Of a stretch of 64,000 bases of DNA, positions 11,460 to 61,206 are shown piece by piece. Every line of letters starts with the position of its first letter. The stretch's first letter is position 1. The DNA is from a virus. The notes under the pieces were generated by a model. It was given only the letters and a program-made list of their open reading frames with translations, had not been told where the DNA came from and made no database searches. The stretch is from the IMG/VR virus record IMGVR_UViG_3300021964_000017; one strand, written 5' to 3'. A program made the translations under genes and the position numbers.

Positions 11460-11463
11460 ATTT

Positions 11464-16630: not shown

Positions 16631-16634
16631 CCGT

Positions 16635-35388: not shown

Positions 35389-35421
35389 TTTCACTTCTCC
35401 ATTATTTAATCTTTATACCTT

Positions 35422-35456
35422 AACATACATCAGTCTGAAGGTAAAGTCAACAGCTA
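35422..35456 (-). promoter_or_regulatory. Early promoter (TTGACT-17-TATGTT)
   Basis: Repeated motif. Confidence 0.7.
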
Positions 35457-35457
35457 A

Positions 35458-35865
35458 TTACGCTGCGCACATATCTTTATACTCAACAACAGCAGCTAGA
35501 TCTTTAACTAGCCGCTTACCATAATCAGTAAACAAGATACCTTGCTCCCAAACAAAGTGTTCGACATCTTGAATGTGATAGAAGGTTTCAGTACCTACTA
35601 TCCAGAGAAGAGCGTTGGTGTAGTTGCCAGCACCAAGCTCGATAACATCCTGAACACGAGCTTGAAAGCGAGCTACTGCTTTGACTTCTTGTTCTTTTTC
35701 AAACTTATTGTTAACCTCAAGCTCCTCACAGAGTTCATCCCAACGAGCTTGCTTCTGGGCAGGGTCCATAGAATCCCAGTTCTCCATGATAATACCGCGA
35801 GGACGAAATCCATAAACATCTTTATGAAGATCTGAGAAGCAATCGTCTGAATAAGTAAATGTCAT
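35458..35865 (-). CDS. Early hypothetical protein
   Basis: SDLHKDVYGFRPR motif; promoter TTGACC-17-TATAAA at 35891-35919. Confidence 0.7.
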   Translation of the reverse strand: MTFTYSDDCFSDLHKDVYGFRPRGIIMENWDSMDPAQKQARWDELCEELEVNNKFEKEQEVKAVARFQARVQDVIELGAGNYTNALLWIVGTETFYHIQDVEHFVWEQGILFTDYGKRLVKDLAAVVEYKDMCAA

Positions 35866-35931
35866 TTTTTTTTTCTCCTTCTATACCCCCTTTATACATC
35901 ATAGTGATACTAAGGTCAACAGTTAATTGAA

Positions 35932-36082
35932 ACTATTTTATACATACGCCCGAGTTAGTATCTCCAATCTCTCCGCGCGGCCTTATTGACATTGCCGCTC
36001 TAGTTCGATTGAAACTAACATCTCTTTCGAGATAGTGCTTTTAGGTAGCCTGCCCTCTACACAGACGTATGTATGAAATAGT
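35932..36082 (-). ncRNA. Candidate structured non-coding RNA (~150 nt)
   Basis: About 20-bp closing stem with G-U pairs enclosing three hairpins, one with a GAAA tetraloop. Confidence 0.5.
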
Positions 36083-36090
36083 CTCCTTAG

Positions 36091-36506
36091 TTAGGGTAAC
36101 TGAACCATTTCAATCTTAGCAAAACGATTAGTATCACGAAGACGCTTGAAAAACTTATCAGCATGAGCATGACTAAGACCACTTGCAAATTCAGCTAACT
36201 GGTAATAACCAGCGTTGAATGTGTAAGCATTAATTGTCCAAGATGTATTATTCATGATGTATTCCTTTTCATTTGATAACTTAATGTACCTCATTGTGGA
36301 ACAGAAGTCAACAGTTAATTGTATGCTTCGGCCATCATTGCATCAACTTCTCTCAATTCTTTAATTCGTTTCACCATCACATAATCTGGATTTTCTCTCT
36401 TACTCATCCAATATTTGTACAATATCCCATTATGTGTTTCTTTGTCAGGAGCATACTCTTCTCTCAGAGCGTCTAATTGAGATTTTCTTTTTCTAGCAAT
36501 AGTCAT
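36091..36506 (-). CDS. Two small early genes (36091-~36255, 36315-36506), each with its own early promoter (36283-36311, 36532-36560)
   Basis: Promoter-RBS-ORF cassettes. Confidence 0.55.
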
Positions 36507-36563
36507 TACACTTCTCCTTATGTGAACACTAATAGTACATCGTAGTCAAACTCAGGTCAACAG

Positions 36564-37151
36564 TTAAGTTAGCATTTCGTAGATTTCTTTCCAACCTTTT
36601 ACAATAGGAATATCATCATTGACATAATTCATATTATGACCATGTTCAACCAGAATTGATTGCAGACCCAACCGCTGACCAAGCTCAGCATTCTCGATCT
36701 TATCTTCAATCCAGAATAGACCTGAACCTTCGTAAGGAGCAAGAGCTTCATCTTTATCAGCACCTGTGCCAATACAAAGAACATCTTCAAACACAGTAGG
36801 TCCAAAGAGCTTACTGAGATTCTCTTCACGCAACTTTGCAGCTGCTGGATCAGTTGATAGGGAGGTTATTGCACGGAACACATATCCATGCTTGCGATGT
36901 AGCAGATCTACATAGTACATTGCATCTCGCAATGGAGGTAAGAATCCAATAGCAGCTGATTCGTTAAAGAACCGTACTAACTCTTTACCTTTTGAGTATG
37001 GAATACCATAGCGGTCAGATATATCATAATCTGAAGCTGTAGTGTTTAGCTTATAGCCATGCTGTTCCATCCAGCATTTAAAAGCGTACTCCCAATTAAG
37101 AAGTACACCATCAACATCCGTTAGGATTACTTTATTCGTATTAATGATCAA
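36564..37151 (-). CDS. HAD-family phosphatase/nucleotidase
   Basis: DVDGVL, ITS, K, WIED; early promoter at 37180-37208. Confidence 0.8.
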   Translation of the reverse strand: MIINTNKVILTDVDGVLLNWEYAFKCWMEQHGYKLNTTASDYDISDRYGIPYSKGKELVRFFNESAAIGFLPPLRDAMYYVDLLHRKHGYVFRAITSLSTDPAAAKLREENLSKLFGPTVFEDVLCIGTGADKDEALAPYEGSGLFWIEDKIENAELGQRLGLQSILVEHGHNMNYVNDDIPIVKGWKEIYEMLT

Positions 37152-37454
37152 CTTTGATCTCCTTTATAAGTTATGCCCCCTTATAGCACATTCTTATACT
37201 GAAGTCAACAGCTAATCGTAACCAAGGACAGCAACTTTAGATATTTCTTCGTCTTCTCTATCTCTCCACGCAGATGAAAATCCACTTTCGCTAACACAGT
37301 TTTCGTGATTGCCCCAGATGCGTTTCATATACGATTCGTATATTTCTTCTACATCTTTGTCGGACCATGATTGGGGGATTAATGAACCTTTTACTATCCA
37401 GTAAAAACGATTGGCTTGCTTACGCACATATGGTGAACACACATATAATACTCC

Positions 37455-37462
37455 TATAAATA
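37455..37462 (+). promoter_or_regulatory. T4 late promoter TATAAATA heading the rightward oxygenase operon
   Basis: Exact consensus. Confidence 0.7.
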
Positions 37463-37537
37463 GATACTTATACTCTGTTAGCGCTAACAATGTTTAGCAA
37501 AACAAAACTTTTGGCAAATACACAGTTGGGATGATTA

Positions 37538-38026
37538 ATGAAATGGTTTGATGTAGATATGAATTTACGCGATGAAGATGTAGAATGGATAAATAATATT
37601 GGTGATAATATTAATAAACCTAAATGGTCTATAAGATCGTACAAACTAAATAAGGAAGAACTCAAAAGAATATCTTATATTACTGAGCAGATTAAAGTAA
37701 AACCTTCCTATGTTGTTATAATGATGGTTCCCGCAAATAGTATATGTGAAACTCATGTAGATCACAAGGCTGGTATGGGTATGAGACAACGTATAACAGC
37801 GATTAACATACCAGTTCAAGTACATCAGACTAGTGCTTTTCAATATATGAAGGGGATTGAAAGCCCACAGATTTTAGAGGAAGTATATCTTGACAGAGCA
37901 AAGTGTTGGAGAGTTGATAAACCCCATCGAGTAGATAATTCTCAAAGTCCTTTTAACAGAGTTGTTCTCAGCTTATCATATACGGAAAGCATAGATCAAA
38001 TATATAATTCCTTATCAAGCCGCTGA
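37538..38026 (+). CDS. Cupin Fe(II)/2OG oxygenase-like protein
   Basis: THVD...AINIP...PHRVDN...RVVLS (HxD, H, RxS). Confidence 0.7.
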   Translation: MKWFDVDMNLRDEDVEWINNIGDNINKPKWSIRSYKLNKEELKRISYITEQIKVKPSYVVIMMVPANSICETHVDHKAGMGMRQRITAINIPVQVHQTSAFQYMKGIESPQILEEVYLDRAKCWRVDKPHRVDNSQSPFNRVVLSLSYTESIDQIYNSLSSR

Positions 38027-38065
38027 GCTAAATACAGTGTGGACTCAGGATAGAGAACAGGTTGC

Positions 38066-38509
38066 ATGAAATATTTTATAACAGGAACAAGGCGGGGCTT
38101 AGGTGAAGCCTTAGCCAATAAGTATGGTAATTGTGGTTCCCTTGAAGATTGTGATGTTTTTATTAATAACAAGTGTGATAGGTTTGAACAGGTGTTTATG
38201 CTATATCGTGCAGCTGAGCTAAATAAAAGGATTATAAATATAAGTAGCAATACGTCAGATAAGAAGAAGCCTAATAATAGAATGTACGCAGTCTATAAAG
38301 GCGCATTAGACGACTTAAATGATAGATTGTATTATGAAGGGTATCCTACAACATCAATAAGGTTTGGATATTTTGATAGTCCAAGAGTTGAACATATCGA
38401 TGCGGATAAAATGCCAATCGATTATTGTGTAGACGTAATTGATTGGATATTGAAACAACCTTACGTAATAAAAGAAATAACTATCACTCCAGAGGTTAAA
38501 CATGGCTAA
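38066..38509 (+). CDS. Minimal short-chain dehydrogenase/reductase
   Basis: ITGTRRGLG, FINN, IINISS, YAVYK. Confidence 0.8.
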   Translation: MKYFITGTRRGLGEALANKYGNCGSLEDCDVFINNKCDRFEQVFMLYRAAELNKRIINISSNTSDKKKPNNRMYAVYKGALDDLNDRLYYEGYPTTSIRFGYFDSPRVEHIDADKMPIDYCVDVIDWILKQPYVIKEITITPEVKHG

Positions 38510-38813
38510 AACACAATCGTATACAATTATATTTAACACGCCCCAGGATGATGCACTCAGTGCAATGAATTTGGTAGGAGCTGATGTAGCTAACGACATT
38601 AGAGCTCTTATACATGAGGGATTAGTGGTTGGCAGCGTTGTTGATCAGGTTCAGAATTTATCATCGGATGGGTTAACTCTAAACGTGGAAAGAACCTTTA
38701 CAGATGAGGTTTATAACAATTTAATGGAAATCGTATCAGTAAGCGATATCAAAACTCAAATTGAAAATGTGACAGAAGTGAGTTCAGTGACATATGGATT
38801 TTCAGACTCTTGA
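38502..38813 (+). CDS. Acidic non-enzymatic protein
   Basis: GAGGT RBS; no catalytic motif; Val/Ser/Thr/Asp-rich. Confidence 0.55.
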   Translation: MAKTQSYTIIFNTPQDDALSAMNLVGADVANDIRALIHEGLVVGSVVDQVQNLSSDGLTLNVERTFTDEVYNNLMEIVSVSDIKTQIENVTEVSSVTYGFSDS

Positions 38814-39189
38814 TCAAATAGATGTAGAAGCAATATTGGATGAAGTTTCACATCTAATAGATCCTACTGATAATATATTGTTGCAAAAGGGTACAAGCAC
38901 TCTACACAATTTGCCGTATACAAATTCACTATTTGAAAAATATAATATGACTACATCTCGTATCATGAAGCTAACACCAAGAGAATGTTATTCATGGCAC
39001 ACTGATGTATCTCCAAGAATACACTTTCCTTTAATAACAAACGATAGCTGTCTTTTTATTTTAGAAGACACTGTTTATACAATGCCGTCAGGTAATGCGT
39101 ACTATGTTGATACTCGAAAAAAACACACTGCAATAAATGGTAACAGAAGAAATTTTATCAGGTATCACATTGTGGGCATGGTAAGTTGA
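38794..39189 (+). CDS. Asp/Asn beta-hydroxylase-like cupin oxygenase
   Basis: YSWHTD..RIHFPLITN..HTAIN..RYHIV. Confidence 0.75.
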   Translation: MDFQTLDQIDVEAILDEVSHLIDPTDNILLQKGTSTLHNLPYTNSLFEKYNMTTSRIMKLTPRECYSWHTDVSPRIHFPLITNDSCLFILEDTVYTMPSGNAYYVDTRKKHTAINGNRRNFIRYHIVGMVS

Positions 39190-39258
39190 GAAGTTTATAT
39201 CGCTATATCTTGTATAGAATACAACTATACAAAATGAAGAAAGAGGATCACTTTATTT

Positions 39259-39921
39259 ATGAAACCGATAGTCATCGTAGGGACGAGCCATAGTTCAGTA
39301 AGGTATTCACCAAGCCTAACAAACATTCTTTCTGAATTATCAACTGTTAAAAATCTGGCGGCATATGGCCATGGAATTGACACCTACTTTCCTAGAGTAG
39401 TAAAGATAAGAGAGCCATCGATATTTGTAATTGAAGCTCCTCATCATACTAGATATACAGAATTCATGAATGAGTCAACGTACGAACCATTTAGTTATAC
39501 AGATGATGAATTTTGGACTGAAAAGAGATATATGGATCATCTGGCGTTTTTCTCAAAGTCAGTTTTGTTACCAGATGAAGAATATAGGGAAGCAATACGT
39601 CCCAGTAAAAATGATCTAATTGCATTGCAAAGAATTAAAGTATTAGCAAACCAACAACTGGAATTAGAAGACAATATATTAAAATGTGTGGCCATTGATG
39701 TGTACTTGAAATACAACAACCATCAAGTTTATTGGTGGACAGCAAACAACAAGTTGTTGCATAAATGGAATCATGATTTTCATTTGCTTACAGATAAACC
39801 TGTGTTTGATAACTATCCAGATAAATCTATGTACCCTGACGGATACCATCTAGCAGATAAATATTTTAAACATATAATTAGAGAGAGTTTTGTAAATGAA
39901 TTGGTTCGAAGTAGATGTTAA
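39259..39921 (+). CDS. SGNH/GDSL hydrolase or acyltransferase-like protein
   Basis: IVGTSHS (block I), NLAAYGHG (block II), PDGYH (block V). Confidence 0.6.
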   Translation: MKPIVIVGTSHSSVRYSPSLTNILSELSTVKNLAAYGHGIDTYFPRVVKIREPSIFVIEAPHHTRYTEFMNESTYEPFSYTDDEFWTEKRYMDHLAFFSKSVLLPDEEYREAIRPSKNDLIALQRIKVLANQQLELEDNILKCVAIDVYLKYNNHQVYWWTANNKLLHKWNHDFHLLTDKPVFDNYPDKSMYPDGYHLADKYFKHIIRESFVNELVRSRC

Positions 39922-40399
39922 TTTAAACGAAGAAGATTTTCATTGGGCTTTGGATATTGGAGACAACATCACGGAACCCAATTGGACTATACGTCCATAC
40001 AAACTAAATGATCAAGAGATGGATCGTATTTCTTATCTTACAGATCAAATTGGTACAGCTCCTAGCTATGCAGCAATAATAATGGTTCCAGCGAATAGTG
40101 TTTGTAAAACTCATGTTGATGACAAGGCTGATACTGCTGGAGTCAAACAAAGAATAACTGCTATCAACATTCCTATTCAAGTACACCAATCTTCTATGTT
40201 TCAATACATGATTAATGATCCATTTGCAGGAGAGATGGCTATAGAAATGGTTAAACTTAACACACCTAAATGTTGGAGGGTTGATATACCCCACAGAGTA
40301 GACAATAGTAAAAGTCCGTTTAACAGAGTTGTTCTAAGCCTATCTTATACTCAAACAATAGAGGAACTACATGAAGTATATCGTGCCATTAAAAATTGA
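39896..40399 (+). CDS. Cupin Fe(II)/2OG oxygenase-like protein, paralog of 37538-38026
   Basis: Near-identical blocks MVPANS.C.THVD, QRITAINIP.QVHQ, PHRVDNS.SPFNRVVLSLSYT. Confidence 0.75.
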   Translation: MNWFEVDVNLNEEDFHWALDIGDNITEPNWTIRPYKLNDQEMDRISYLTDQIGTAPSYAAIIMVPANSVCKTHVDDKADTAGVKQRITAINIPIQVHQSSMFQYMINDPFAGEMAIEMVKLNTPKCWRVDIPHRVDNSKSPFNRVVLSLSYTQTIEELHEVYRAIKN

Positions 40400-40937
40400 A
40401 TATGATAAGAATCAATTTCTAGAATTCATTAATCGAAAAAATTTAGATTATGATGCATTGGCCCAAAAGAAACGATGGCACAATAACTTTCCTGTTGAAG
40501 AATTAAACATCGGACCTATCCAGCAATACATGAAGGATGTTGTTCTAATTCTTAGTTTGTTTCCAAAGTATCAAATACCAATTCATGCAGATGGTGCAGG
40601 GACCAGATTAGACAATACCTACAATGTCAGTATTAATTTTCCTGTTGCTAATTGCACTGAAGAGACAGTCACTCACTTCTGGGATTTTGAAGACAGACGT
40701 GAGATAAAATATATTCATCATGAGAAGTTGGGGACACGAGAAATAGTTGATAAGGACCAACTAGTAGTTGCACAAGATTATGTGTTTAGAGATACGCCTG
40801 TGCTATTCAGAAATGAATATCCTCATAGTGTATCTAATAAATGTAATAATTTGAGATTAATGTTAAGCTGGAGATTTAAACCAGAATATTCGTGGGAACA
40901 GGCAATTGAACTATGTGAGCAACATCACCTGTCATAA
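40371..40937 (+). CDS. Cupin Fe(II)/2OG oxygenase-like protein
   Basis: PIHAD..SINFP..PHSV.N..RLMLS. Confidence 0.7.
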   Translation: MKYIVPLKIEYDKNQFLEFINRKNLDYDALAQKKRWHNNFPVEELNIGPIQQYMKDVVLILSLFPKYQIPIHADGAGTRLDNTYNVSINFPVANCTEETVTHFWDFEDRREIKYIHHEKLGTREIVDKDQLVVAQDYVFRDTPVLFRNEYPHSVSNKCNNLRLMLSWRFKPEYSWEQAIELCEQHHLS

Positions 40938-41325
40938 TATAGTGTTGATTGATAGTCCATTTATCTCGCTCAATTATAGTTTGTTGATAAACCTGATCAA
41001 ATAGATCCTTACCTGTAATTCTTTCTAGCGATTGCTTTACAAGGTCAATTCTTCTATATGATGTTGCAATTGTATAGTTCTCCATCACGTACTGATAGAT
41101 CTTGTTATCTAGTTTATGTAAGGAATGCCAATGGCCATGTAATACATGCTTGTGACCATATACTATTTCTTCTACATTATATTCATTTTTTCCAAGATAT
41201 TCAGGTGTGTGCAACACACCATGCGCAGGAAGTTTATTATGCTTTTCTGCAAGATAGTTTACTAATGCTTTGGATGCAGTTCGTGGAAAACTAATTACTG
41301 CTATATTAGAAATTGTGTTCTCCAT
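40876..41325 (-). CDS. Sulfotransferase-like P-loop protein (short)
   Basis: ISFPRTAS resembles the PRTGS 5'-PSB loop; R...Q.S downstream. Confidence 0.45.
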   Translation of the reverse strand: MENTISNIAVISFPRTASKALVNYLAEKHNKLPAHGVLHTPEYLGKNEYNVEEIVYGHKHVLHGHWHSLHKLDNKIYQYVMENYTIATSYRRIDLVKQSLERITGKDLFDQVYQQTIIERDKWTINQHYIMTGDVAHIVQLPVPTNILV

Positions 41326-41993
41326 AACAACCTTTCGCCTTCAAACGCTATACGCTTATGATTCATCCTTAGATTATCCCATACAAGTATTTCGTTATCT
41401 TTCCATTTATGTTTGTATGCGTTTTCTTCACAGTATTCTCTAATTGGTGTAACATCCCAATCAAAGTTTTGTAGTGTTCCTATGCTACAATATAATATCT
41501 CTTCGCCTGTAATATGGTGATTTATAATGAACGGACGAGTGGCCTTTTGTTTTTCTAAAATACGCAGCTGCTTTTCCGTAAAGCATTGTCCATGTAGGTT
41601 TTGTGGAGGATAATATTCTCCTACTGCATCCTTATAGATATGTTTTAAGATATCTGGTGCTTTACTCATATCACAAAACCAAGTAGGCGACAAGTGTGCA
41701 TTACTTACATTGTATAGTATTGTGCCAAAATAGTTACCTCTACCATAACTCCAATCATGATGCCACTGTACATCATCATTACCAAATAATCCACTATTGC
41801 TTAATTCCTGTACAGTTCTATTTTCATTAAGGACATGCTTTGTTGTTACTAACGGTTTACCTAATGCATTAGCAATCTTTTCGAATTGTTCTATAGTAAT
41901 CTTACCTGGCATTTGTATCTTAAGCAATCCATAATTTAGGAGATCGTCACGCAATGTGTGTAACCACTTATCCTGCCATTCTATTTCAAGCAT
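41301..41993 (-). CDS. TauD/TfdA-family Fe(II)/2OG dioxygenase
   Basis: WHHD, T.F.D, H.W...LVWDN...HKR..RLLWR. Confidence 0.85.
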   Translation of the reverse strand: MLEIEWQDKWLHTLRDDLLNYGLLKIQMPGKITIEQFEKIANALGKPLVTTKHVLNENRTVQELSNSGLFGNDDVQWHHDWSYGRGNYFGTILYNVSNAHLSPTWFCDMSKAPDILKHIYKDAVGEYYPPQNLHGQCFTEKQLRILEKQKATRPFIINHHITGEEILYCSIGTLQNFDWDVTPIREYCEENAYKHKWKDNEILVWDNLRMNHKRIAFEGERLLWRTQFLI

Positions 41994-42582
41994 TGTATTC
42001 TCCTAAATGTTTTTCCATTTGTTCAAAGGTTAAATCTGGAAGTTCAATATGTAACATTAGCCTGTCTTTGTTAATATTTTTAACACCATGTCTTTTCATT
42101 ACATTCATTATAACTGGCTGTGTTATATTGTAGCTTCCACCATCCGGATAATATGTTAATGCTTCAGTAGTCTCAAACTCATTATAAAAAAGAGGAAGCA
42201 TTAACAAACAATTTTTTCTATAAGGATAATCGCCATGTACAGGAACATCTTCTCCTGCACGCTGCATAAAAAATGTAATTAATCCTGGCTTTAGTCCCAA
42301 ACCACTTAATTGTGCAATTATGGGTATTATACTTTCATGCATAACATCTGGATATGCTATAATGTCTGTCCTTGCCTGACTTTGTACGCCTTTACTTTGT
42401 AAATGCTTTTTTAGATCTCTTATGCTATCACCTTCAAAGTACCCATAATCACGTTTAAATTCATCTACGTATGTTGCTGGTGTATCCTCCAGCATTTCTA
42501 ATGATAATTTTTTAAAATATCTGTAAAGGGCAGCTGTGCAATATGTTATATCAATCAGTAATATTTCACTGGTGTGTGGCAA
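41986..42582 (-). CDS. Cupin Fe(II)/2OG oxygenase-like protein
   Basis: PVHGD...HGVKN...RLML. Confidence 0.6.
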   Translation of the reverse strand: MPHTSEILLIDITYCTAALYRYFKKLSLEMLEDTPATYVDEFKRDYGYFEGDSIRDLKKHLQSKGVQSQARTDIIAYPDVMHESIIPIIAQLSGLGLKPGLITFFMQRAGEDVPVHGDYPYRKNCLLMLPLFYNEFETTEALTYYPDGGSYNITQPVIMNVMKRHGVKNINKDRLMLHIELPDLTFEQMEKHLGEYNA

Positions 42583-42584
42583 GG

Positions 42585-43457
42585 TTAAGAGGCTTCTGAC
42601 ATGAGACTTTCACAAGTCCATGTTTCAGAAGTTTCTCTCTTAGGGGTAAGCCAGATTCCAGCTCTCCATAATTCACGGTCTCCATCATATGCGTCCCTCT
42701 TGTGCAAGCTGTGGTGTTGATCACTCAGTACAATGTCGTACTGATCCCACTTATGAGTGTAGACATACTTGTCGCTAAGCGTATGTTCTTTTAGTTTATA
42801 ATACAAGTCATGTTGCTGATCATGAGTAAGTCCAGTGAATCCTCTAATAACACTCCAAGGGAAATACAACCCTTCCTTGTTGTTTATAGGATGAATTGTT
42901 ACCAGATCTTTTCTGGGCGCTTGCTTTTCAAATGATGTCTGACCATCAATGTCTCTAAATTCCATCATAGTCTGTTCGTCACTGAAAACATTTTTATAAT
43001 GCATCTTCTCTAACTTCATTTTTGCATTATACGTAACAGTCTTTGACTTTACCTTTCGGCAAACATCTTTTGTATCATCATCTAAGTCTTCCCATGCAGA
43101 TTGGTGATCAGTAAAATAAGTGTCACCACCACTATCTGCTTTTTGATGCATATACATTGCAACAATGTCATCGTGGCCAGTTCTATTCATACCTGCACTA
43201 TGCCATTCTAACTCACCATCATCCTTGCCTGCAAACAAACCATTCTGTCTTACCTTGACAAGTTCTCCAGTAGCAATGGTGCCTGTTACCTTTTTGTTTT
43301 GTTTTACAACATCACCTATCTTCTTGTAGAACTCTATCAGAGTTTGAGGAGCAAGAGGCACTTTATTTTTTATGATAACAGTTCTATACTCTCCAATCAA
43401 TTCTCTAATTCTTGGAGCATCCGTATCATAATTTATGTCATTTACAATATAAGTCAT
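42585..43457 (-). CDS. TauD-fold Fe(II)/2OG enzyme with HxA motif (putative halogenase)
   Basis: EWHSAG in place of WHxD; GGDTYF.D, HP, H.W...D....HKR, RELWR retained. Confidence 0.75.
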   Translation of the reverse strand: MTYIVNDINYDTDAPRIRELIGEYRTVIIKNKVPLAPQTLIEFYKKIGDVVKQNKKVTGTIATGELVKVRQNGLFAGKDDGELEWHSAGMNRTGHDDIVAMYMHQKADSGGDTYFTDHQSAWEDLDDDTKDVCRKVKSKTVTYNAKMKLEKMHYKNVFSDEQTMMEFRDIDGQTSFEKQAPRKDLVTIHPINNKEGLYFPWSVIRGFTGLTHDQQHDLYYKLKEHTLSDKYVYTHKWDQYDIVLSDQHHSLHKRDAYDGDRELWRAGIWLTPKRETSETWTCESLMSEAS

Positions 43458-43954
43458 TTTTTCTCCATCAATAGTTCAGCAGTATTATTTATAGGTGTCC
43501 AAGCTATATGCTGATAATCATTCTCTGTCATTCTATACAATTGATCGGGAGTATGCCATAGCTGAGGTAAGTATTTTTTATAATGATTAAACGCTTGAGT
43601 CTTTGCTTCTCTACTCATGAACGCACAATCAAAACCAAGTTGTTTAGCAACGATTAGTTGTTGATCGATCATCTGCAATGTTTCTTGTGACACTCTTGCT
43701 TTTTTATTTTCAAATCTATAGTTAGGAACTTTATAAAACCTATTTAAAATTCGACAATTGTTCTGCCAATATGGTCTCCATATTACTGAAGAAAATCCTC
43801 CGGCAAAAACTGATACTGCTTCCCACTCTTGTGTTTTTAATTGTTGATATGAATAATTAAGGCGTAGCTTGTCGTTTGGAAGATTACTTACCATTTCCTT
43901 TATTTGTTCTATACAATCGATAAAGTCTGGATGATCTCTAATAACCGTTTTCAT
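43454..43954 (-). CDS. GNAT-like fold protein
   Basis: RILNRFY..P.YR...QQL..AKQLGFDCAFMSRE resembles GNAT motifs A and B. Confidence 0.45.
   Translation of the reverse strand: MKTVIRDHPDFIDCIEQIKEMVSNLPNDKLRLNYSYQQLKTQEWEAVSVFAGGFSSVIWRPYWQNNCRILNRFYKVPNYRFENKKARVSQETLQMIDQQLIVAKQLGFDCAFMSREAKTQAFNHYKKYLPQLWHTPDQLYRMTENDYQHIAWTPINNTAELLMEKK
43486..43493 (-). promoter_or_regulatory. Internal T4 late promoter TATAAATA just upstream of the HxA TauD gene
   Basis: Exact consensus about 30 nt before ATG 43457. Confidence 0.6.
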
Positions 43955-44870
43955 TTTTCTTCACGTGTTCAAAAAAAGGAGCAATCTTAAAGTTTTCTGT
44001 TAACCTACCTCTGTTAGGATTATCATGATCAATCACCCCATCGTCATTTGTCTGCCAATCAATAAGGCGAATAAGAACTGTACCAGCTCTAGTTTTATAT
44101 GGAAACATCATAGACGTAAGAGCCTCCATTGTAGGTCCTGCCTTTACTACTCCAGCAGATGTTTGTATCATTTGATCTTTTGTAACGCCCAGTCTATACT
44201 CAGCCATATCAATTAACTCTTCCATGGTATGAGAACAATCTTCCATATACCGCCCGATGGCACCAACGCTTTTCATTCTTAATACTGGAGTAATTTTATT
44301 GTAAGGTTTAGTTGTATCGAAGTTTATACCATGAGCAATTGCTCTTTCTGCAAACAGCTCTATCTGTCTTAACATGGTAAACTCATTAACTCCTTTTGCA
44401 ATAATTGTTCCGGTATTAACAGGAAGTCTTTGTTCAAATATATTGTCCAGAGCTCTTACTTTTACTGTTGCCCATTTGCCATTATCAAGCTCCTTGTATA
44501 CCAAATCATCATCTGCTCCATTCATACTATGAAGCAACAACCTTAGACCAGAATCTTTCAATTGTTTGACGTAAGATTTGTTTGCTAGCTTTAAACCATT
44601 AGTTGTTAGACTAGGTCTATGGCCAAGAGACTTTACCATATAAATTATCTCACATATATCTTCTCTCATTGTGGGCTCAGCACCAATTAATCTAATGTAA
44701 GTTCTAAATGGAAGTTTTTTAAGAAAGTCGTATAGATTGCTTGTTGGTAGATCGGGAACATCTCTATTGGGAATGTAGCAGTTAGCACATTCCATGTTAC
44801 ATCTGTGAGTTAAATCAACTACAATGTTTGAGAACGTATTGTTCTCTGGATCGAGTTCATAATAATTCAT
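43938..44870 (-). CDS. Radical SAM enzyme
   Basis: CNMECANC, GAEPT, TTNG; start at ATG 44870 after GAGGG; late promoter AATAAATA at 44916-44923. Confidence 0.9.
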   Translation of the reverse strand: MNYYELDPENNTFSNIVVDLTHRCNMECANCYIPNRDVPDLPTSNLYDFLKKLPFRTYIRLIGAEPTMREDICEIIYMVKSLGHRPSLTTNGLKLANKSYVKQLKDSGLRLLLHSMNGADDDLVYKELDNGKWATVKVRALDNIFEQRLPVNTGTIIAKGVNEFTMLRQIELFAERAIAHGINFDTTKPYNKITPVLRMKSVGAIGRYMEDCSHTMEELIDMAEYRLGVTKDQMIQTSAGVVKAGPTMEALTSMMFPYKTRAGTVLIRLIDWQTNDDGVIDHDNPNRGRLTENFKIAPFFEHVKKNENGY

Positions 44871-44943
44871 ATTGTTACCCTCGTTATGGACGTTTTGCCC
44901 TCGTCCGCACACTACTATTTATTGCATAATATTTTTACATTAT

Positions 44944-45261
44944 CTACCAGTTTAATTCGTAACCTATCACAGCACCTACTGTATCTTTGCCTTCTAATGC
45001 AGGTGCTACAAAAAAGTTTTTGTATGTTCCTCTCACATAAGGAATAACATCTGCTTGAGGATAGCCTGTGACTGCTCCTGCCTCCAAACCAAAGCCGTTG
45101 TATTCCCAACGTTTGCCAGCATAGGTGCTTATGTTACTTTCTGAGTTGTAGTATACACCCGCAATATAGTTTTGCTCATTATATCTTATGTGCGGGTGTA
45201 TGCTATTGTAGTCGCCTTGTAATCCTAAGTGTAGGCTAAATGCCAACGCTAATTCAATCAA
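44944..45261 (-). CDS. Small outer-membrane beta-barrel-like protein
   Basis: Alternating strands, G.Y.NS, G.VTGY, C-terminal aromatic residue. Confidence 0.55.
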   Translation of the reverse strand: MIELALAFSLHLGLQGDYNSIHPHIRYNEQNYIAGVYYNSESNISTYAGKRWEYNGFGLEAGAVTGYPQADVIPYVRGTYKNFFVAPALEGKDTVGAVIGYELNW

Positions 45262-45398: not shown

Positions 45399-45821
45399 CT
45401 AATCTTCCACATCGCGATTGTCCCATGGTGCGTTTTCGTAACAGCCTGCTGGCAGTTTATCTTTGTAACTTACGCCTGCTTTGAATCCATTTTGAGTTTG
45501 TTCTAGGTATGCACTCTCAAACGGCATATCTCTTGGCTTGCCCCAGCAACGATTTAAGCTTTGGCCTGGAACTCTGTATCTGGGATTGTGTTTTAGAAAG
45601 TCTCTTAGCTCTGCCAACTCAGCTGCTTGTATCTTCATACGTACCTTCATAGCGCAACTTGCTATCTTCGTAAAGTCGATAGTGTCGAACTTATCAATTG
45701 AGTAGTTATGATCAGATAGACATTTCTTCAATCCGTTGTTATATGTCTCTTCTGCGTTTGCGTGGTTAAATGTAAAGAAAACTAAACAGCCAATTACTAA
45801 ACACCGTAATACATTTTTCAT
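45399..45821 (-). CDS. Secreted Cys-containing protein
   Basis: Signal peptide ending ANA; four Cys in the mature part. Confidence 0.55.
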   Translation of the reverse strand: MKNVLRCLVIGCLVFFTFNHANAEETYNNGLKKCLSDHNYSIDKFDTIDFTKIASCAMKVRMKIQAAELAELRDFLKHNPRYRVPGQSLNRCWGKPRDMPFESAYLEQTQNGFKAGVSYKDKLPAGCYENAPWDNRDVED

Positions 45822-45842
45822 TATGTGTTATTATTTCATCTC

Positions 45843-46484
45843 CTAATTTGCTAGTGGATTATCCAATGCTCGCTGCAGCTTCGTATTCAATGCGTCTTGC
45901 AGTTCTCTCATTTCACGAGCAATCTTTGCTTCTAGGTCAGTCATACGCTGGCCACTAGACTCACGCAGATCTGTTGCTTTAGTATCGTATTGATTCTGTA
46001 GTGCATCTCTCTTATTATCAAAACGCTCTTCAGCATTCTGAATAATCTGTCTGATGTCTGCTTCTGTCTCTCGTACCAACTTCTCTACTCTACGAGTCTG
46101 ATCTTCAAGGTAACCAATCTGTGAGTTGGTGTCTACTTTGTTCTCGCGGTTGCGGGTGTTTGCATCATCTAACTGCTTTTGTATAGCAATAAGCTGAATA
46201 GTGATTTCTTTATTTACATTTTCAAGTGACGCTTCTATCTGTTGATTGCGTGTTTCAATTACATCAACATCAATGTTTTGAACAATCTCTTTCATACCCA
46301 TGTAGTCGTCATACACTTGGAAAGCACCGTACAGACCACCGACGATTGAACTGAGCAACGCAAACAGCATACCAATAGTTGTTGGTGTCATTGTGATACC
46401 AAACAACTTCATTTTAGTGTTCTTGAGATTTTCTACTTCTTGTTCAAAATTCTCTATGCCTTCGCCAAGATCTTTATCGGCCAT
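45843..46484 (-). CDS. Membrane-anchored coiled-coil protein
   Basis: TM segment (IVGGLYGA), long coiled coil, C-terminal ALDNPLAN. Confidence 0.65.
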   Translation of the reverse strand: MADKDLGEGIENFEQEVENLKNTKMKLFGITMTPTTIGMLFALLSSIVGGLYGAFQVYDDYMGMKEIVQNIDVDVIETRNQQIEASLENVNKEITIQLIAIQKQLDDANTRNRENKVDTNSQIGYLEDQTRRVEKLVRETEADIRQIIQNAEERFDNKRDALQNQYDTKATDLRESSGQRMTDLEAKIAREMRELQDALNTKLQRALDNPLAN

Positions 46485-46495
46485 CTAAACTTCTC

Positions 46496-46918
46496 CTAGT
46501 TTTCAAACTGTGCTGTACTAGACTCATTCAAACGCCTAAGAGCCTCTAACTCTTGTTGCAGCTTTAAAACTTCTAGTCGCTTTTTCCTCAGCTCTAATTG
46601 ATATAAACTGTTACAGTTAATTCTTTCTTTGGGTTTGTCCAATGGAATAACAATACGTGCATACACACCCACATCTTTTTCGCTATTGCCATAATCAGGA
46701 GATCCAAACGGACTTGCATAATTATCAATGATACCAGTAAGACCAAATTCAAGTTGTGTCGCGCCACCGATAGAGTTCTTACAATCTATGTCCCCAGCTC
46801 TAATGCTGTCTGATCCATATGAACTACCAGCTCCTGGCAGCGACAATCCAATTCCTGCATTATCAGCTAATCCTTGAATTGGGAATAACATAACACATGC
46901 TATAATATATTTTTTCAT
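46496..46918 (-). CDS. Secreted protein with beta-hairpin and coiled coil
   Basis: Signal peptide; two conserved-looking Cys; GVYARIVIPL. Confidence 0.6.
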   Translation of the reverse strand: MKKYIIACVMLFPIQGLADNAGIGLSLPGAGSSYGSDSIRAGDIDCKNSIGGATQLEFGLTGIIDNYASPFGSPDYGNSEKDVGVYARIVIPLDKPKERINCNSLYQLELRKKRLEVLKLQQELEALRRLNESSTAQFEN

Positions 46919-47304
46919 TCGCCTGGCCCCCCTACCTTAGAACAAATCTTAGATGAGATCGCTGTCCGATTAACAACCGATTTGCGTAATTTTGATACAG
47001 AGCATATGTAAGTAACTTTGTCCTTATTAATGTCTTGAACGTAAATATCAAACGTCACTGCGCTCAGGTATGGAATTTTATAAACTTTGTAACTGGAAAC
47101 GAACCGAATGGGTTTCCAATCTTTAGTGAAAACTCCAATTTCATAGTACTCAATCTCCGGTCTTTTATTGAATACTGTTAAGGAAGTCTTATGCAGACCT
47201 TCCATATAAGATGGTGCCAACTTGGGATATGTTGGCACCATCTCATGTGCATTTACAGGAGAACAAACAATACACACTAGCATAAACAAGACATAACGTA
47301 ACAT
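46915..47304 (-). CDS. Secreted pilus-chaperone-like Ig-fold protein
   Basis: Signal peptide, then PT...LTVFN....YEI.V resembling PapD-type N-domains. Confidence 0.45.
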   Translation of the reverse strand: MLRYVLFMLVCIVCSPVNAHEMVPTYPKLAPSYMEGLHKTSLTVFNKRPEIEYYEIGVFTKDWKPIRFVSSYKVYKIPYLSAVTFDIYVQDINKDKVTYICSVSKLRKSVVNRTAISSKICSKVGGPGE

Positions 47305-47313
47305 AAGTAATCC

Positions 47314-47832
47314 TTACTTCGCGATACAGGAAGCCTCTACAAGTGCTGTATAGTTGCCTCCAGGGAACGCTTTAGAACCACCCATTGTGGCTGTTGAAGA
47401 AGTTTCAAACCATGTTGATCCAGTAGCAGTAAGATCATAGCGATCTGTCATTCCTGTTTCAATTTTATTGGTTTCGTACGATCCCATCCCCGTTGCATCT
47501 GACAATGTCTTGACGGATGTGTCCCCAGCCCAGGTAACAAGGTCTGGAAGGTTAGGTGCAGATGAAAAGCTACTGGGCGCAGTAATATCCACGTAGTATG
47601 CGTTTGCTAGAGTCACATCTACTCGGATAATTGGAAGTGCTCCACCATCGGCTGGTGTTGTGGATAGTGTATAAGCATTAGGGTTTCCGTAGATCCCAGG
47701 TTGGTCTGTTTGAATAATACAGCGACTTTGTACGGTACCATTAATAGGTGTGTCTTGTGCTTGCGAGATACCTGGTTGTACCAGAAGTGGTACAAGGAGT
47801 ACTGCAAGCGCACCTCTTTTTAAAGTTAACAT
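47314..47832 (-). CDS. Secreted fimbrial/pilin-like protein
   Basis: Signal peptide AQA; INGTVQSRC.I N-terminus and PGGNYTALV C-terminal strand, as in chaperone-usher pilins. Confidence 0.5.
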   Translation of the reverse strand: MLTLKRGALAVLLVPLLVQPGISQAQDTPINGTVQSRCIIQTDQPGIYGNPNAYTLSTTPADGGALPIIRVDVTLANAYYVDITAPSSFSSAPNLPDLVTWAGDTSVKTLSDATGMGSYETNKIETGMTDRYDLTATGSTWFETSSTATMGGSKAFPGGNYTALVEASCIAK

Positions 47833-47842
47833 TTTATTCTCC

Positions 47843-48748
47843 TTAGTTTTCGTTTAGGGTATATTGCATATCAATCATTTGCTTGTGTAACAACTGCTGA
47901 GCTAATCCATTACGTAAACCATTCTTTGCATCAGGAATTTTTGTATCTACTAATGATACACTTTCATTGTATTGTCCACCTGGAATACTAGCTATCAAAT
48001 ATGTTGAAGCGATTGCGGTTTGAGCAACCTCATTCATTAACTGTATTCTTTGATTCTCCGCTAACAACGCATTTGTGTCGATAGCAGACATTGCCTTTTC
48101 CAGTCTGTATTTTCTCTTCAGTTCTTCTTCTTCTTCTTTTTTCTTCTTTTCAGATTCTTCTAAATTCTCTACATCTTGCTCTAAAGAAACCTTGCGGTCA
48201 AGCTCAATGTTCTCATCTTTGGTTGCATCATATACATCATCCAGACTAACCTGGGGGATGTCTGGCACCGGCGTCACATATCCAGGACAGTTCGGATCAA
48301 ACTGTGGATCATAACAAGGGGTAACCTTGTAGGTATATATCACACTCGCATCGTAAACTGAACCATTTCCTTGCACATCAATACTACCAGGTCCCCATAG
48401 CTCTCTAGGCAGATCACCCACAGCAACAACTTTATTAATCTGCGTGCCAGCTATTGATCCTGGCTTCCAATCATCTCGCTGTCTAAAGATATATCCAGTC
48501 CCATCCGCGTTCTCGTTTTGGACATAAACTGTAACCCATTCACCCGTTTCTTTTTGAATTCTATAACTGTATATTACATTCTGAATATCCAACCCAGCAG
48601 GATCTGGTAACACGCCGCCCATAGACCAGCTTAAAGACTGATCTGTTATAGCGTTTCCAGTATACCCGAAGTACGGTGCTATGCTATCAGAGTAGCAGTA
48701 GGAAGGCCAAAACGCCAGCGCCGACAACAGGAGCAGCTTTTTCTGCAT
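47843..48748 (-). CDS. Secreted protein with beta domain and charged coiled coil
   Basis: Signal peptide; CYDPQFDPNCPGY; poly-E/K stretch. Confidence 0.6.
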   Translation of the reverse strand: MQKKLLLLSALAFWPSYCYSDSIAPYFGYTGNAITDQSLSWSMGGVLPDPAGLDIQNVIYSYRIQKETGEWVTVYVQNENADGTGYIFRQRDDWKPGSIAGTQINKVVAVGDLPRELWGPGSIDVQGNGSVYDASVIYTYKVTPCYDPQFDPNCPGYVTPVPDIPQVSLDDVYDATKDENIELDRKVSLEQDVENLEESEKKKKEEEEELKRKYRLEKAMSAIDTNALLAENQRIQLMNEVAQTAIASTYLIASIPGGQYNESVSLVDTKIPDAKNGLRNGLAQQLLHKQMIDMQYTLNEN

Positions 48749-49286
48749 CTATAGGTCCCATTAGTTTGAGTTCTTTTTCAGTCTCTTCAACATGAGTTTC
48801 CCAACCCAGCTTAGCCGCTTCACCAATTAAACCTTGATATGGACAAGGTGTTCCTGCGTTCATCATTGCCTTAAAGACGTTTTCATCTTGACACATAGTT
48901 GAAACTGCGGCCACCTTCATGCCCATATCGTAGAGCACTTTTGCATTTTTCAATCGCTGACAATTCTCTTCAGTGAATGTACCACCCGCCGAGATACCTA
49001 AGATCTGTGTTTGTACAGATGCTGAAGCACCAATTGTACATAAGTCACTATTATTCCCAGAACTAAACTGTGGTGATATTGCGGATGGGGGTGGCTGCTT
49101 AATAGTTGTTGTCATTTGTCCACTGGTAGTGATATTACTATCATTGCCTGACAAAGTACACACATACCCTTCAGGACATTCAACATCTTGAGCATGTGCT
49201 GATGTTGCGAGTGCCGCAACTATCAACATACCAAAGAACATCACTACAACTAGCCAAATAATTTTATGCAACATGTTAAACTCCAT
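48687..49286 (-). CDS. Secreted Cys-rich membrane-anchored protein
   Basis: Signal peptide; PPPSAISP; six Cys; C-terminal TM; late promoter TATAAATA at 49297-49304. Confidence 0.65.
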   Translation of the reverse strand: MEFNMLHKIIWLVVVMFFGMLIVAALATSAHAQDVECPEGYVCTLSGNDSNITTSGQMTTTIKQPPPSAISPQFSSGNNSDLCTIGASASVQTQILGISAGGTFTEENCQRLKNAKVLYDMGMKVAAVSTMCQDENVFKAMMNAGTPCPYQGLIGEAAKLGWETHVEETEKELKLMGPIDAEKAAPVVGAGVLAFLLLL

Positions 49287-50180: not shown

Positions 50181-50540
50181 TTAGAATGCGAAAGATGCAC
50201 CCATTTTTACGTTGCCAAACTCAAAGTCAGAGTCTGTAGATACTTCACCATATGCGGTCAAGCCTGTTGCGCCAATGGCATACTCAGCTGAGAAGTCCAG
50301 ACCCTTAAAGGTGTCATCACCATTGAGGTTCATCAGATCGAATGTGGATCCCACGGTTACTTCTGCGCCCATAAGACCCAAGCCAACTTCAGGAGTTGCT
50401 TCAAGTGCCCAAAGCTCTGTGCCAGTGGTGTAGTTCATATCTACTTCACCACCTACTGTAAGACCATTACCAAGGTCTACTGCTGATGCTTGTGTTGCAA
50501 CCAAGAGAGTTGCTGCTGTTGCGAATACTGCGAGTTTCAT
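50181..50540 (-). CDS. Small outer-membrane beta-barrel protein
   Basis: Signal peptide ASA; amphipathic strands; C-terminal GASFAF beta-signal. Confidence 0.7.
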   Translation of the reverse strand: MKLAVFATAATLLVATQASAVDLGNGLTVGGEVDMNYTTGTELWALEATPEVGLGLMGAEVTVGSTFDLMNLNGDDTFKGLDFSAEYAIGATGLTAYGEVSTDSDFEFGNVKMGASFAF

Positions 50541-50574
50541 TTTACTTTTTCCTAGATTGAGTTAAACATTATAA

Positions 50575-50870
50575 AAGTGCCACATTTTCTGTTGCTAAGC
50601 AAGTGGCCAGCTCCCTGTGTTTAGGCTGCTAGAGCCAAACCAGATGGTGCAAAGTTATTGTTTGCAGTTAGTTTGTTTGATCTATACGCGATCATCCGGT
50701 AAACTCCACTTCATCTTCACACCTGTCGATCCTATTTCAGCCCCATCAAAAGTACACTTTATATTGAGAGGTTCTTACGGCTTCAGCGCTGCCTCGTAGT
50801 GTACTTATGGTGGAGCTGCTGGGTACCGCCCCCAGGTCCAGTATGTGTCCACGTTGCTTCAACGTTTACT
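50575..50870 (-). ncRNA. ssrA: Circularly permuted two-piece tmRNA
   Basis: Acceptor piece ends GGACCTGGGGGCGGTACCCAGCAGCTCCACCA (50808); intervening hairpin; coding piece starts GGGGCTGAAATAGGATCGAC (50744); tag ANNNFAPSGLALAA* at 50665-50621. Outer ends approximate. Confidence 0.92.
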
Positions 50871-51293
50871 AGCTTACTTATACATCCTCTTTAATTTAAA
50901 GGCAACAAGGTTTAAACATTTGTACAGAGTAGGACCTAAAAGGCACAGTGCATAATACATTCCAAGTATTATCAAATACTCTGTAAACACATTCCCTTGT
51001 GTACGTAACACTCCACTGAATATACTACTATGGATTGCGGTGTATAGTAATACAAGAAAATATGAAAAGAATGGCCCCAAAGCCAGCATTAGCAATTTCA
51101 TTAAAAGGGTGGCTCCTCACCCTCATACGAAGGCATCCATCCCATGGATATACCAGTGCGTACAGCGCGCTCATGGGGAGTTTCTTCTTCAGGCCACACA
51201 ATATCTGACTGTGAACCATAAATTGCTATTCTGTCATCTGATGATAGAACGCCATGCTTAAGCATCCAGCACTCAAGGTCAATAGGTATCTCT

Positions 51294-55251: not shown

Positions 55252-55572
55252 TCAACAACCCAAGAAGGGCGCGCGGCCCTCTCGGACAGCATCAAGTTCT
55301 GCTTCCTCTAGATCCAATGCATATAACATTAATACACAATAGTGCATAGCCTTCATAATGTCCTTACGATTCTTACCACCTTTCTTACCGTACCGAGCAA
55401 GATACTTAATCGCTGTATCACGAGACGTAGTCTCCAGCGAACCTAAGGAACGCCAGAAGTCTACAGTCTGAACATCACCATCACCAACATAGTGTTGGCC
55501 ATACGTTCCATCAATATACTCTTGCAAAGCTGCCATAGCTTTGTCTTCATTATATTTGTATTTAATTGTCAT
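55252..55572 (-). CDS. DUF3310 (T7 gp1.7-like nucleotide kinase family) protein
   Basis: TY.QHY, AIKYLARYGKK, DIMKA.HY. Confidence 0.7.
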   Translation of the reverse strand: MTIKYKYNEDKAMAALQEYIDGTYGQHYVGDGDVQTVDFWRSLGSLETTSRDTAIKYLARYGKKGGKNRKDIMKAMHYCVLMLYALDLEEAELDAVREGRAPFLGC

Positions 55573-56431
55573 AGTACACTCCTGAATCAGCTGGTAATTG
55601 ATCATCGATATGCCGGCAATTATACATTGCTTTGGCAATCTTGGCAACGTCTGCTGAGTTGTGATCGAAATCTACCTCAATCTCATTCTTACCAGCAATC
55701 AATCCAGTTGGAGAATTATCAAATTGAATATCACACATACCAGCCCACACAGCTGCAGAGCTATCCCAAGAGTCAATCGCCCACAGATACTCTTCCACTA
55801 GACTACATTCGTTAGGACCATCAACCATACCCAGGAAGTGAATCTTCTTATTGTTACCTTTGATTGCATCTAGGATACCACGCTCGTGGAGCTCACGCAT
55901 AAACTTCCAACGAGACATGAATCGTTGTAGCTTATTGTCTTTTTCAACACCATACGCAATTGGGACGGCTAGAATAGAGACACCAATATAATCTACATGC
56001 TCGGACTGAGCTGCCCACTCGAACGCACGAATGAGATCTTCGAGGTCTCCCTCTTCCGATTGAGGAACAAAGAATGTTCCAAACCCAGCCTCTCGTAGCT
56101 CTGGCGCCATCTCAATAGCTTTATCAATAGTTACTTGAGAGGGTTGGCCTGGATAGTCGGACATCACAATGTAGTCAGCTCCGACTTTGGTTCCCATTTC
56201 AATTAGCTTATCGGATGGATACATTTCACGACCCTGCTTGTACATCTCGAAGGCAGAGTTATCCATAATGTTAACATAAGGACTAAGCCCACGAGACAAG
56301 TCGCGATCAGCATACCAACTGGCATACGTCTCGTCTTGCTCGATCAAGTGTGCTAATGTTAAGTGAAAAGGTCGACCTGCTGCAAACAAGTCTAAGTACG
56401 CGGTTGGCGTAATGTGCGCAAATTCAGTCAT
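55562..56431 (-). CDS. TGT-fold DNA deazaguanine transglycosylase (DpdA3-like)
   Basis: IMDNSAFE, FVPQ, IHFLG, SWDSS; located in the que gene cluster; promoter TAGACT-17-TATAAT at 56478-56506. Confidence 0.7.
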   Translation of the reverse strand: MTEFAHITPTAYLDLFAAGRPFHLTLAHLIEQDETYASWYADRDLSRGLSPYVNIMDNSAFEMYKQGREMYPSDKLIEMGTKVGADYIVMSDYPGQPSQVTIDKAIEMAPELREAGFGTFFVPQSEEGDLEDLIRAFEWAAQSEHVDYIGVSILAVPIAYGVEKDNKLQRFMSRWKFMRELHERGILDAIKGNNKKIHFLGMVDGPNECSLVEEYLWAIDSWDSSAAVWAGMCDIQFDNSPTGLIAGKNEIEVDFDHNSADVAKIAKAMYNCRHIDDQLPADSGVYYDN

Positions 56432-56503
56432 GATATCTCCATAGTTTAAGGTATAGGCAGATTAATCGTCTGCCTATATTATACTTCAAATCAGTTTAAA
56501 AGT

Positions 56504-56734: not shown

Positions 56735-56774
56735 CTTTAAGATCCCATAAGATTAAGTGTATATACAGTCTTAT

Positions 56775-58222: not shown

Positions 58223-58293
58223 AGGTCACTACTCCATTTTTGATATACCTATAGGTATACCATACAGTCGAATAGAAGTCAACAGTTAATTAA

Positions 58294-59640: not shown

Positions 59641-59641
59641 A

Positions 59642-61198: not shown

Positions 61199-61206
61199 AA
61201 TAACTC

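Follow-up and report, generated by a model that had tools for sequence, protein, structure and literature searches.

An accessory phage island built around an unnamed radical SAM family, with a possible role in acyl-group tailoring

The viral DNA considered here (IMG/VR record IMGVR_UViG_3300021964_000017; the 64,000 nucleotides analysed are referred to as the window) carries at 37455-44923 an island of enzyme genes organised around a radical S-adenosylmethionine (rSAM) enzyme of an unnamed family. In the clade to which the island belongs, the conserved unit is rSAM-GNAT-TauD(HxA)-TauD(HxD), named after the His-x-Ala (HxA) and His-x-Asp (HxD) forms of the TauD active-site motif and often extended by a sulfotransferase-like gene, cupins and a small protein. 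The core of the island recurs in many aquatic phages and in some bacteria. Across phages and bacteria the rSAM stays constant while its partners are swapped, which is a new observation. The evidence leans towards tailoring and transfer of an acyl group over nucleotide chemistry, and we consider an acyl-tailoring step likely. Our preferred reading, in which an acyl-type group is tailored by the cassette and then joined to a late phage protein, is put forward more tentatively; the acyl-tailoring step is common to this reading and to a small-molecule alternative discussed below.

Gene order, mobility and exchange of partners

The order rSAM-GNAT-TauD(HxA)-TauD(HxD) recurs in dozens of loci, at several genomic sites and down to ~50% rSAM identity. 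The sulfotransferase-like gene and cupins often come next, facing an arm made up of the small protein, an AspH-family gene and a cupin; the short-chain dehydrogenase/reductase (SDR) gene, the SGNH-like gene and the first cupin gene are optional. An earlier reading of the window, made from its letters alone (the original prediction), had allowed that homologs might prove to be single and shuffled with no recurrent co-occurrence, and the recurring order shows otherwise. It had also proposed an acquired pathway. Close relatives (L180, L183 and L185-L189) have an empty site beside a DUF932 gene, and a different island occupies the same site in L171, L174 and L204. Contig depth in one population is 0.5-8.5 over the island against roughly 7-66 on its flanks, and the SGNH-like gene is cleanly missing in two sister populations (joint 39180-39892, seen in two DNA runs). 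The island is thus an accessory, modular and mobile cassette; the acquired character stands, whereas a single fixed 13-gene pathway does not. No direct repeats were found flanking the window's copy.

The same data raise the question of whether the island is one system. It could be a recombination hotspot that gathers late accessory genes, each independent and with its own task, and no single pathway, as the wide variation in gene content, the alternative islands and the loss of single genes would allow, together with the occurrence of the GNAT with other oxidases and without this rSAM in L204 and in the phage Mosig (EXVC030M, MT647606). We regard this as quite unlikely, however: the core order persists over the range of identities and sites given above, searches with the HxA TauD and with the GNAT gave only rSAM-bearing loci, and the triad is compact in bacteria. 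The other conserved island, found at the same site or beside tail fibres (L171:1-5900, L204:2814-9930 and, in Mosig, L141:8130-14383), encodes a desaturase, AspH, a His-x-Asn (HxN) TauD, a pyridoxal-phosphate (PLP) enzyme, flavodoxin-like and peroxiredoxin proteins, a cupin and a GNAT; Mosig places it in a cultured phage.

Matches to the rSAM were obtained in 89 viral contigs, in 360 metagenome stretches and, at full length, about 30 times in genome bins, a few of the last being phage contigs. Among 67 non-redundant loci whose contigs extend far enough to either side, 56 have an O2-dependent oxidase at most three genes from the rSAM, 44 have an acyltransferase within that distance and 42 have both; these counts are inflated by kinship among the loci and have no formal null. 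The oxidase slot is filled by a TauD, a membrane desaturase, an AspH-type or a haem-oxygenase-like enzyme, and the acyltransferase slot by HlyC (E 1e-27 to 1e-33), by MBOAT or by a GNAT, either of the window type or of one of three other groups. Acyl carrier protein (ACP) genes occur in 15 of 80 viral loci, and ACP synthase in some. HlyC, which acylates protein lysines with acyl-ACP as donor, adjoins the rSAM or lies within two genes of it in L081, L083, L085, L252 and the P0007 contig, and in L082, L085 and L252 the rSAM is flanked by genes for type I secretion and for RTX-repeat cargo. Partner replacement and HlyC chemistry together suggest, as a common denominator, that an acyl thioester is first tailored and afterwards passed on. 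Moreover, tail-fibre or neck genes are found no more than 4 kb from the rSAM in 24 of 63 viral loci.

The loci that combine rSAM, TauD and HlyC or GNAT in or near type I secretion genes (L082:5517-13925, L081, L083, L085, L086 and L252) belong to uncultured Geminicoccaceae, Rhodospirillales and other alphaproteobacteria, and L086 and L252 add a histidine-phosphatase-like gene. In L102:7962-12237 and L104:7728-9217 a haem-oxygenase-like diiron enzyme comes after the rSAM (L102 has MBOAT as well), and Chlorobiaceae (L105-L114) carry a distant stand-alone family member without any partner.

In the preferred reading, a host thioester (acyl-ACP or acyl-CoA) would supply the chain; any ACP used would be that of the host, as the clade has none of its own. 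The HxA TauD would halogenate the chain, the HxD TauD and the small oxygenases would hydroxylate or desaturate it and the rSAM would perform some radical step, after which the GNAT would move the group onto an amine of a late phage protein, either the 103-aa protein of the island or tail/neck proteins. The optional SDR, SGNH, sulfotransferase and methyltransferase would diversify the tag or other target residues. Variation of the virion surface for host recognition is, speculatively, the purpose. A fuller version is doubtful when taken as a whole: at assembly, the phage pathway would put a halogenated, rSAM-tailored acyl group on a virion protein by means of a TauD-fold halogenase, and bacteria would use the same rSAM module to tailor the acyl group of HlyC for secreted surface proteins.

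Several observations weigh against attachment to a phage protein. In addition to the bias in the partner counts, about a third of the loci lack an acyltransferase close by, and some rSAMs in bacteria occur on their own. ACP is absent from the island and from the genome of a complete relative, in searches whose positive controls worked, the window's island is not beside structural genes, and none of the cultured phages searched carries this rSAM family. The 103-aa protein may, judging from its modelled fold, itself be an enzyme. The island also has no dedicated ACP loading enzyme. Finally, the same co-occurrence of acyl-ACP, oxidase and acyltransferase fits synthesis of a small molecule, either free or bound to the membrane (N-acyl amino acid, aminolipid or a compound resembling a signal), for which the GNAT would join an acyl thioester to a small amine, compare OlsB, FeeM and LuxI, and the oxidases, halogenase and rSAM would decorate the product. 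This alternative is possible rather than probable. TauD-fold enzymes act mostly on small molecules, LasI, RpaI and MesI are among the fold matches of the GNAT (Z 8.7-9.3, tied with generic GNATs), and secondary-metabolite synthesis has been proposed for cyanophage dioxygenase arrays (PMC2938197). However, the island has no nonribosomal peptide synthetase, ligase or exporter, no GNAT member has a LuxI, OlsB or FeeM match in Pfam, the HlyC and type I secretion contexts indicate protein targets, and a promoter-proximal small protein would be left unexplained.

Genes, active sites and promoter boxes of the island

By its sequence the window derives from a T4-like phage, and its single-stranded DNA-binding protein is 48-52% identical to marine myovirus homologues. 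A two-piece (permuted) transfer-messenger RNA (tmRNA) encoded at 50530-50901 (-), tag end LALAA, points to an alphaproteobacterial host, given the known distribution of such tmRNAs. The sequencing runs that cover the window best are estuarine. As originally predicted, the island consists of two convergent operons with 13 open reading frames (ORFs), all present and intact (7 on the + strand, 37538-40937; 6 on the - strand, 40876-44870); most overlap adjoining ORFs, and the same 13 genes are called in an identical ENA contig. The block had looked more AT-rich than its flanks by eye, and its profile agrees, with 34.9% GC against 39.2-41.9% in every 7.5-kb stretch outside and 27% GC at third codon positions against 36% elsewhere (p=5e-7). 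None of the 13 proteins has a hydrophobic segment and all are soluble, which argues for cytoplasmic chemistry. The seven island genes tested are under purifying selection (nonsynonymous polymorphism, pN, 0.10-0.34, with synonymous polymorphism, pS, near-saturated). A search of PHROGs named none of the 13 proteins beyond generic rSAM/FabG matches. The features are as follows (2OG, 2-oxoglutarate; PAPS, 3′-phosphoadenosine 5′-phosphosulfate).

37455-37462, +: late box TATAAATA, T4-type, opens the rightward arm
37538-38026, +: small Fe/2OG oxygenase, HVD..H..R, optional; 61% identical to the product of 39896-40399
38066-38509, +: minimal SDR, TGxxxGxG and YxxxK, optional; Pfam adh_short E 4.5e-5, below cut-off
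38233-38240, +: further TATAAATA within the SDR gene, 269 nt before the 103-aa gene
38502-38813, +: acidic 103-aa ferredoxin-like protein, isoelectric point 4.1; Atlas model, TM ~0.6 to ABM/YdhR clusters
38794-39189, +: AspH-family Fe/2OG hydroxylase, soluble, H69-x-D71, H111, R123; PF05118 E 2.9e-9
39259-39921, +: SGNH-like orphan, optional; G-x-S and DGYH motifs only
39896-40399, +: small Fe/2OG oxygenase, H73-x-D75, H133, R144
40371-40937, +: small Fe/2OG oxygenase, H72-x-D74, H152, R162
40876-41325, -: sulfotransferase-like protein; invariant P14-R15-x-x-S18 and R91..S99, like two PAPS-binding motifs
41301-41993, -: TauD dioxygenase, canonical HxD; Pfam TauD E 1.9e-17
41986-42582, -: small Fe/2OG oxygenase, HGD..H..R; TTG start backed by a homologue, alternative ATG 42495
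42585-43457, -: TauD-fold protein, H86-x-A88, H252, T113, R261, R265; candidate radical halogenase
43454-43954, -: GNAT-fold acyltransferase (by structure), unnamed family, 166 aa
43486-43493, -: late box TATAAATA, internal, about 35-36 nt before the HxA TauD
43938-44870, -: rSAM, single-cluster CxxxCxxC, unnamed family; nearest TrsS/Tes/MoaA
44916-44923, -: late box AATAAATA, near-consensus, before the rSAM

The rSAM passes the Pfam radical SAM cut-off. It is 310 aa long, with Cys only at 24, 28, 31, 73 and 212; the C-terminal cysteines for an auxiliary Fe-S cluster (MoaA/SPASM-twitch type) are absent from it and kept in an outgroup clade. Over the radical SAM core the best library matches are Tes, TrsS and MoaA (E 1e-23 to 1e-15), and the presence among them of Tes, a lipid-chain enzyme, may be taken as support for acyl chemistry. 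Identity with MoaA, Tes, TrsS, viperin or a SPASM peptide maturase was rejected, the top score being 83.6 bits against a TrsS cut-off of 490 and the rest lower.

Four arginines of the rSAM (R60, R207, R287 and R289) are invariant and could bind phosphates, which would suit hypermodification of phage DNA or nucleotides. Thymidine hypermodification pathways employ rSAM isomerases and acetyltransferases (PMC8989533), Mom is a GNAT-fold DNA modifier (PMC13219725), and rSAM, GNAT and Fe/2OG enzymes are all known from phage DNA-modification pathways; the window also encodes FolE, QueD and QueE. We nevertheless judge such a function very unlikely, and the least probable of those considered. None of the 13 proteins matches TET/JBP, hydroxymethyluracil (HMU) kinase, an amino-acid:DNA transferase or Mom, the island is unlinked to replication genes, and desaturase, ACP, HlyC and MBOAT partners would make no sense for DNA. 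This negative covers the 13 proteins; the wider check of the genome for HMU kinase was run without a positive control.

The AlphaFold model of the GNAT (predicted local distance difference test, pLDDT, 92) aligns with a known GNAT at Z 10.3 and a root-mean-square deviation (rmsd) of 3.2 over 127 residues; Foldseek concurs, and no subfamily stands out. The usual GxG acetyl-CoA loop is absent from the sequence, and the Pfam GNAT profile (Acetyltransf_1) matches 4 of 42 family members. Assignment to LuxI, OlsB, FeeM, HlyC or Mom was rejected, with no Pfam or NCBIfam match for the window protein and no Pfam match in 41 relatives. In the sulfotransferase-like protein, the putative 5′-phosphosulfate-binding (5′-PSB) loop and 3′-phosphate-binding (3′-PB) Arg..Ser motif are invariant in 19 sequences, library matches are weak (E 0.05-0.6), and in L161 an adenosine 5′-phosphosulfate (APS) kinase adjoins the island. 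The G-x-S and DGYH motifs of the SGNH-like protein are conserved in 4 close sequences with no profile match, and both SDR motifs are conserved in their family. From the gene list first proposed, the rSAM, TauD, AspH and GNAT assignments hold, that of the SDR is weak, and those of the SGNH and sulfotransferase proteins rest on motifs.

Both TauD proteins and the AspH protein score above Pfam cut-offs, and in the four small cupin families the HxD, the distal His and an Arg ~10 residues on are nearly invariant, so that the seven non-heme iron enzymes counted in the original prediction are recovered. In the HxA TauD, H86-S-A88 aligns with the HxD of its paralogue, of RdpA-type enzymes and of solved TauD-family enzymes, and H252, T113, R261 and R265 are invariant (pN 0.13 against pS 0.76-0.83). 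With active-site residues intact and under purifying selection, the catalytic degeneracy that might have undone the prediction was not encountered. HxA is found in 21 of 21 clade members (<85% mutual identity), and a quick version of the tree gives it one origin (support 97) with an HxD sister; HxN relatives, Mosig's included, fall further out. Wherever the contig is long enough, an HxD paralogue accompanies the HxA protein. The predicted model has the TauD fold (Z 25.4, rmsd 2.7, 248 aligned), with Z 9.2 to WelO5 and 7.9 to HalB and with low pLDDT in loops near the metal site.

On these residues, it is rather probable that the HxA TauD is a radical halogenase. To our knowledge, the characterised Fe/2OG halogenases all belong to subfamilies other than TauD/TfdA, within which none is known to halogenate. 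All reported radical halogenases have a 2His-1Gly/Ala site (PMC13489965), and the window protein has 2His-1Ala in place of 2His-1Asp/Glu while keeping the distal His and the 2OG-binding residues. Bare motif searches for halogenases yield false positives (PMC12871659), a warning countered here by the alignment that fixes the HxA position. If active, the enzyme would be a virus-encoded radical halogenase, relevant to biocatalysis and to sources of marine organohalogens.

The 103-aa protein had been called non-enzymatic, which is not established, as its fold is of the ferredoxin-like ABM/YdhR type. The protein is folded, has few conserved polar residues and lacks repeats and Cys; from the model, it is a candidate target or scaffold, or else a dimeric alpha-beta-barrel enzyme. 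Small acidic proteins of ~100 aa (this family and look-alikes) are promoter-proximal behind late boxes in 34 of 45 cases (76%), against a background of 15%, a position that fits an abundant target better than a catalyst. Homology with the ~97-aa family of desaturase-type cassettes is weak (hhalign probability 16%, E 0.002), and the two are handled as look-alikes. As to marks of a ribosomally synthesized and post-translationally modified peptide (RiPP) system, no protease or exporter is found among the 13 genes; a precursor may be encoded by a very short ORF. The cultured phages searched include no carrier of the small proteins or of the queried cupin, and only Mosig has a distant TauD.

All three late boxes predicted to open the operons were located. 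The window contains TATAAATA 14 times against 5.1 expected by chance, and 0 of 100 shuffles reach 14; the occurrence inside the SDR gene may be a chance one. The box before the HxA TauD is also kept in L002, L005, L006 and L007, and the closest relatives of the rSAM (L001-L017) have no late box before it. The early-promoter motif GTTGAC-N17-TA occurs at 35450, 35919, 36311, 36560 and 37208 and has no intergenic occurrence within the island, in line with the predicted absence of the surrounding early promoters. From the late boxes alone, the island is probably transcribed late. A single RNA run gave a few short contigs within the island, indicative of neither transcription nor timing. The early motifs belong to five tandem cassettes of one or two small genes each (35410-37217, -), among which contigs of other populations have joints.

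Surroundings of the island

Directly upstream of the rSAM (44944-45261, -) lies a gene for a PagP-like small protein (PHROG 3600, E 1e-9). With the SGNH-like, sulfotransferase-like and SDR genes of the island, the MBOAT partners in bacteria, and the aminotransferase, carbamoyltransferase and probable glycosyltransferases of related islands, it would fit decoration of a glycan or host-envelope precursor (nucleotide sugar, O-antigen or virion glycan), serving superinfection exclusion or virion glycosylation; a change of the O-chain has been proposed for pelagimyophage islands (PMC7029224). The island itself, however, has no glycosyltransferase or sugar aminotransferase, its SGNH and SDR genes are optional, and exclusion would be expected early, whereas the island boxes are only late. 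We consider this explanation unlikely.

Further upstream, 45399-49286 (-) encodes six to seven signal-peptide-like proteins behind a late box at 49304, a block conserved among relatives whether or not they carry the island. Elsewhere in the window are tRNA-Trp and tRNA-Arg (11386-11541), FolE, QueD and QueE of the 7-deazaguanine pathway with a phosphoribosyltransferase-like gene and unnamed neighbours (55562-61674, -), and genes that by eye look like glycosyltransferases, methyltransferases and sulfotransferases (14116-18706, -), the last group being common to the complete relative G001. In G001 a second tailoring island lies beside the tail-fibre genes (45-57.5 kb); read from motifs, it holds Fe/2OG enzymes, an ORF resembling a flavin halogenase and several radical SAM-like genes. 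The second island also encodes a 191-aa protein (L164:17436-18011, -) that ends in a Cys/His-x-Ser-like repeat and RGRR and has no PHROG match; it looks like a RiPP-style modified virion protein. A third enzyme island of G001 occupies 26-39 kb.

Relation to known systems

The literature searched, with little subscription coverage, contained no paper on the gene combination, the rSAM family, the HxA TauD or the HlyC link. As a whole the island did not qualify as a MoaA, Tes, SPASM maturase, JamABC-type or DNA-hypermodification cluster. Tes/GDGT-MAS, TrsS and MoaA are the best core matches of the rSAM, which differs from them in lying far below their cut-offs, in its length of 310 aa and in its lack of auxiliary cysteines; the partners of this unnamed family indicate acyl chemistry in phages and bacteria alike. 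JamABC and the aminolipid enzymes OlsB/C/D/E are thioester-tailoring cassettes. Sister cassettes of the island resemble them in having a desaturase or hydroxylases, an acyltransferase of the GNAT fold and an acyl donor that depends on ACP, whereas the island lacks an acyl-ACP ligase, an ACP and a membrane enzyme and adds the rSAM and the HxA TauD. The likeness to HlyC/RTX acylation with type I secretion lies in the bacterial rSAM copies, which occur with HlyC, RTX cargo and HlyB/HlyD, HlyC taking the position of the GNAT. In contrast, the phage GNAT is not HlyC by Pfam and has no secretion system, and the known hly operons are without chain-tailoring enzymes. If the virion is the target, phages would vary their surface through small-molecule chemistry, beyond protein sequence alone.

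With the Fe/2OG radical halogenases (SyrB2, CmaB, WelO5, BesD/HalB, AspX and BtnX; PMC13489965) the HxA enzyme shares the 2His-1Ala site, the 2OG-binding Thr/Arg and an adjoining 2His-1Asp paralogue; it differs in its TauD/TfdA fold and in being phage-encoded, and its activity is a prediction. Pelagimyophage host-recognition islands (PMC7029224) and the tailoring cluster of Mosig are likewise hypervariable and carry variable rSAM cassettes, and next to its tail fibres Mosig encodes AspH, a desaturase, an HxN TauD and a GNAT, the last two related to those of the island. The window's island, in contrast, is located away from the tail region, encodes no glycosyltransferase and contains an rSAM family absent from the cultured phages searched. 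Tandem dioxygenase arrays of cyanophages (Syn9-type) and bacterial AspH-sulfotransferase-acetyltransferase operons were described computationally, with protein substrates predicted (tail-collar or collagen-like; PMC2938197). The island resembles the arrays in its numerous Fe/2OG enzymes, carried by a marine T4-like phage, and the operons in its AspH, sulfotransferase-like, acetyltransferase and small non-catalytic-looking proteins and in the APS kinase near one relative, whereas its rSAM, TauD pair and HxA enzyme set it apart. JmjC, flavin halogenase, collagen and tail-collar proteins were not found in the island. We know of no previously described array or island of this kind with a characterised product. 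Reports from 2010 and 2020 recorded oxygenase-rich islands in marine T4-like phages but gave them no function; the present one reduces to a small, testable core.

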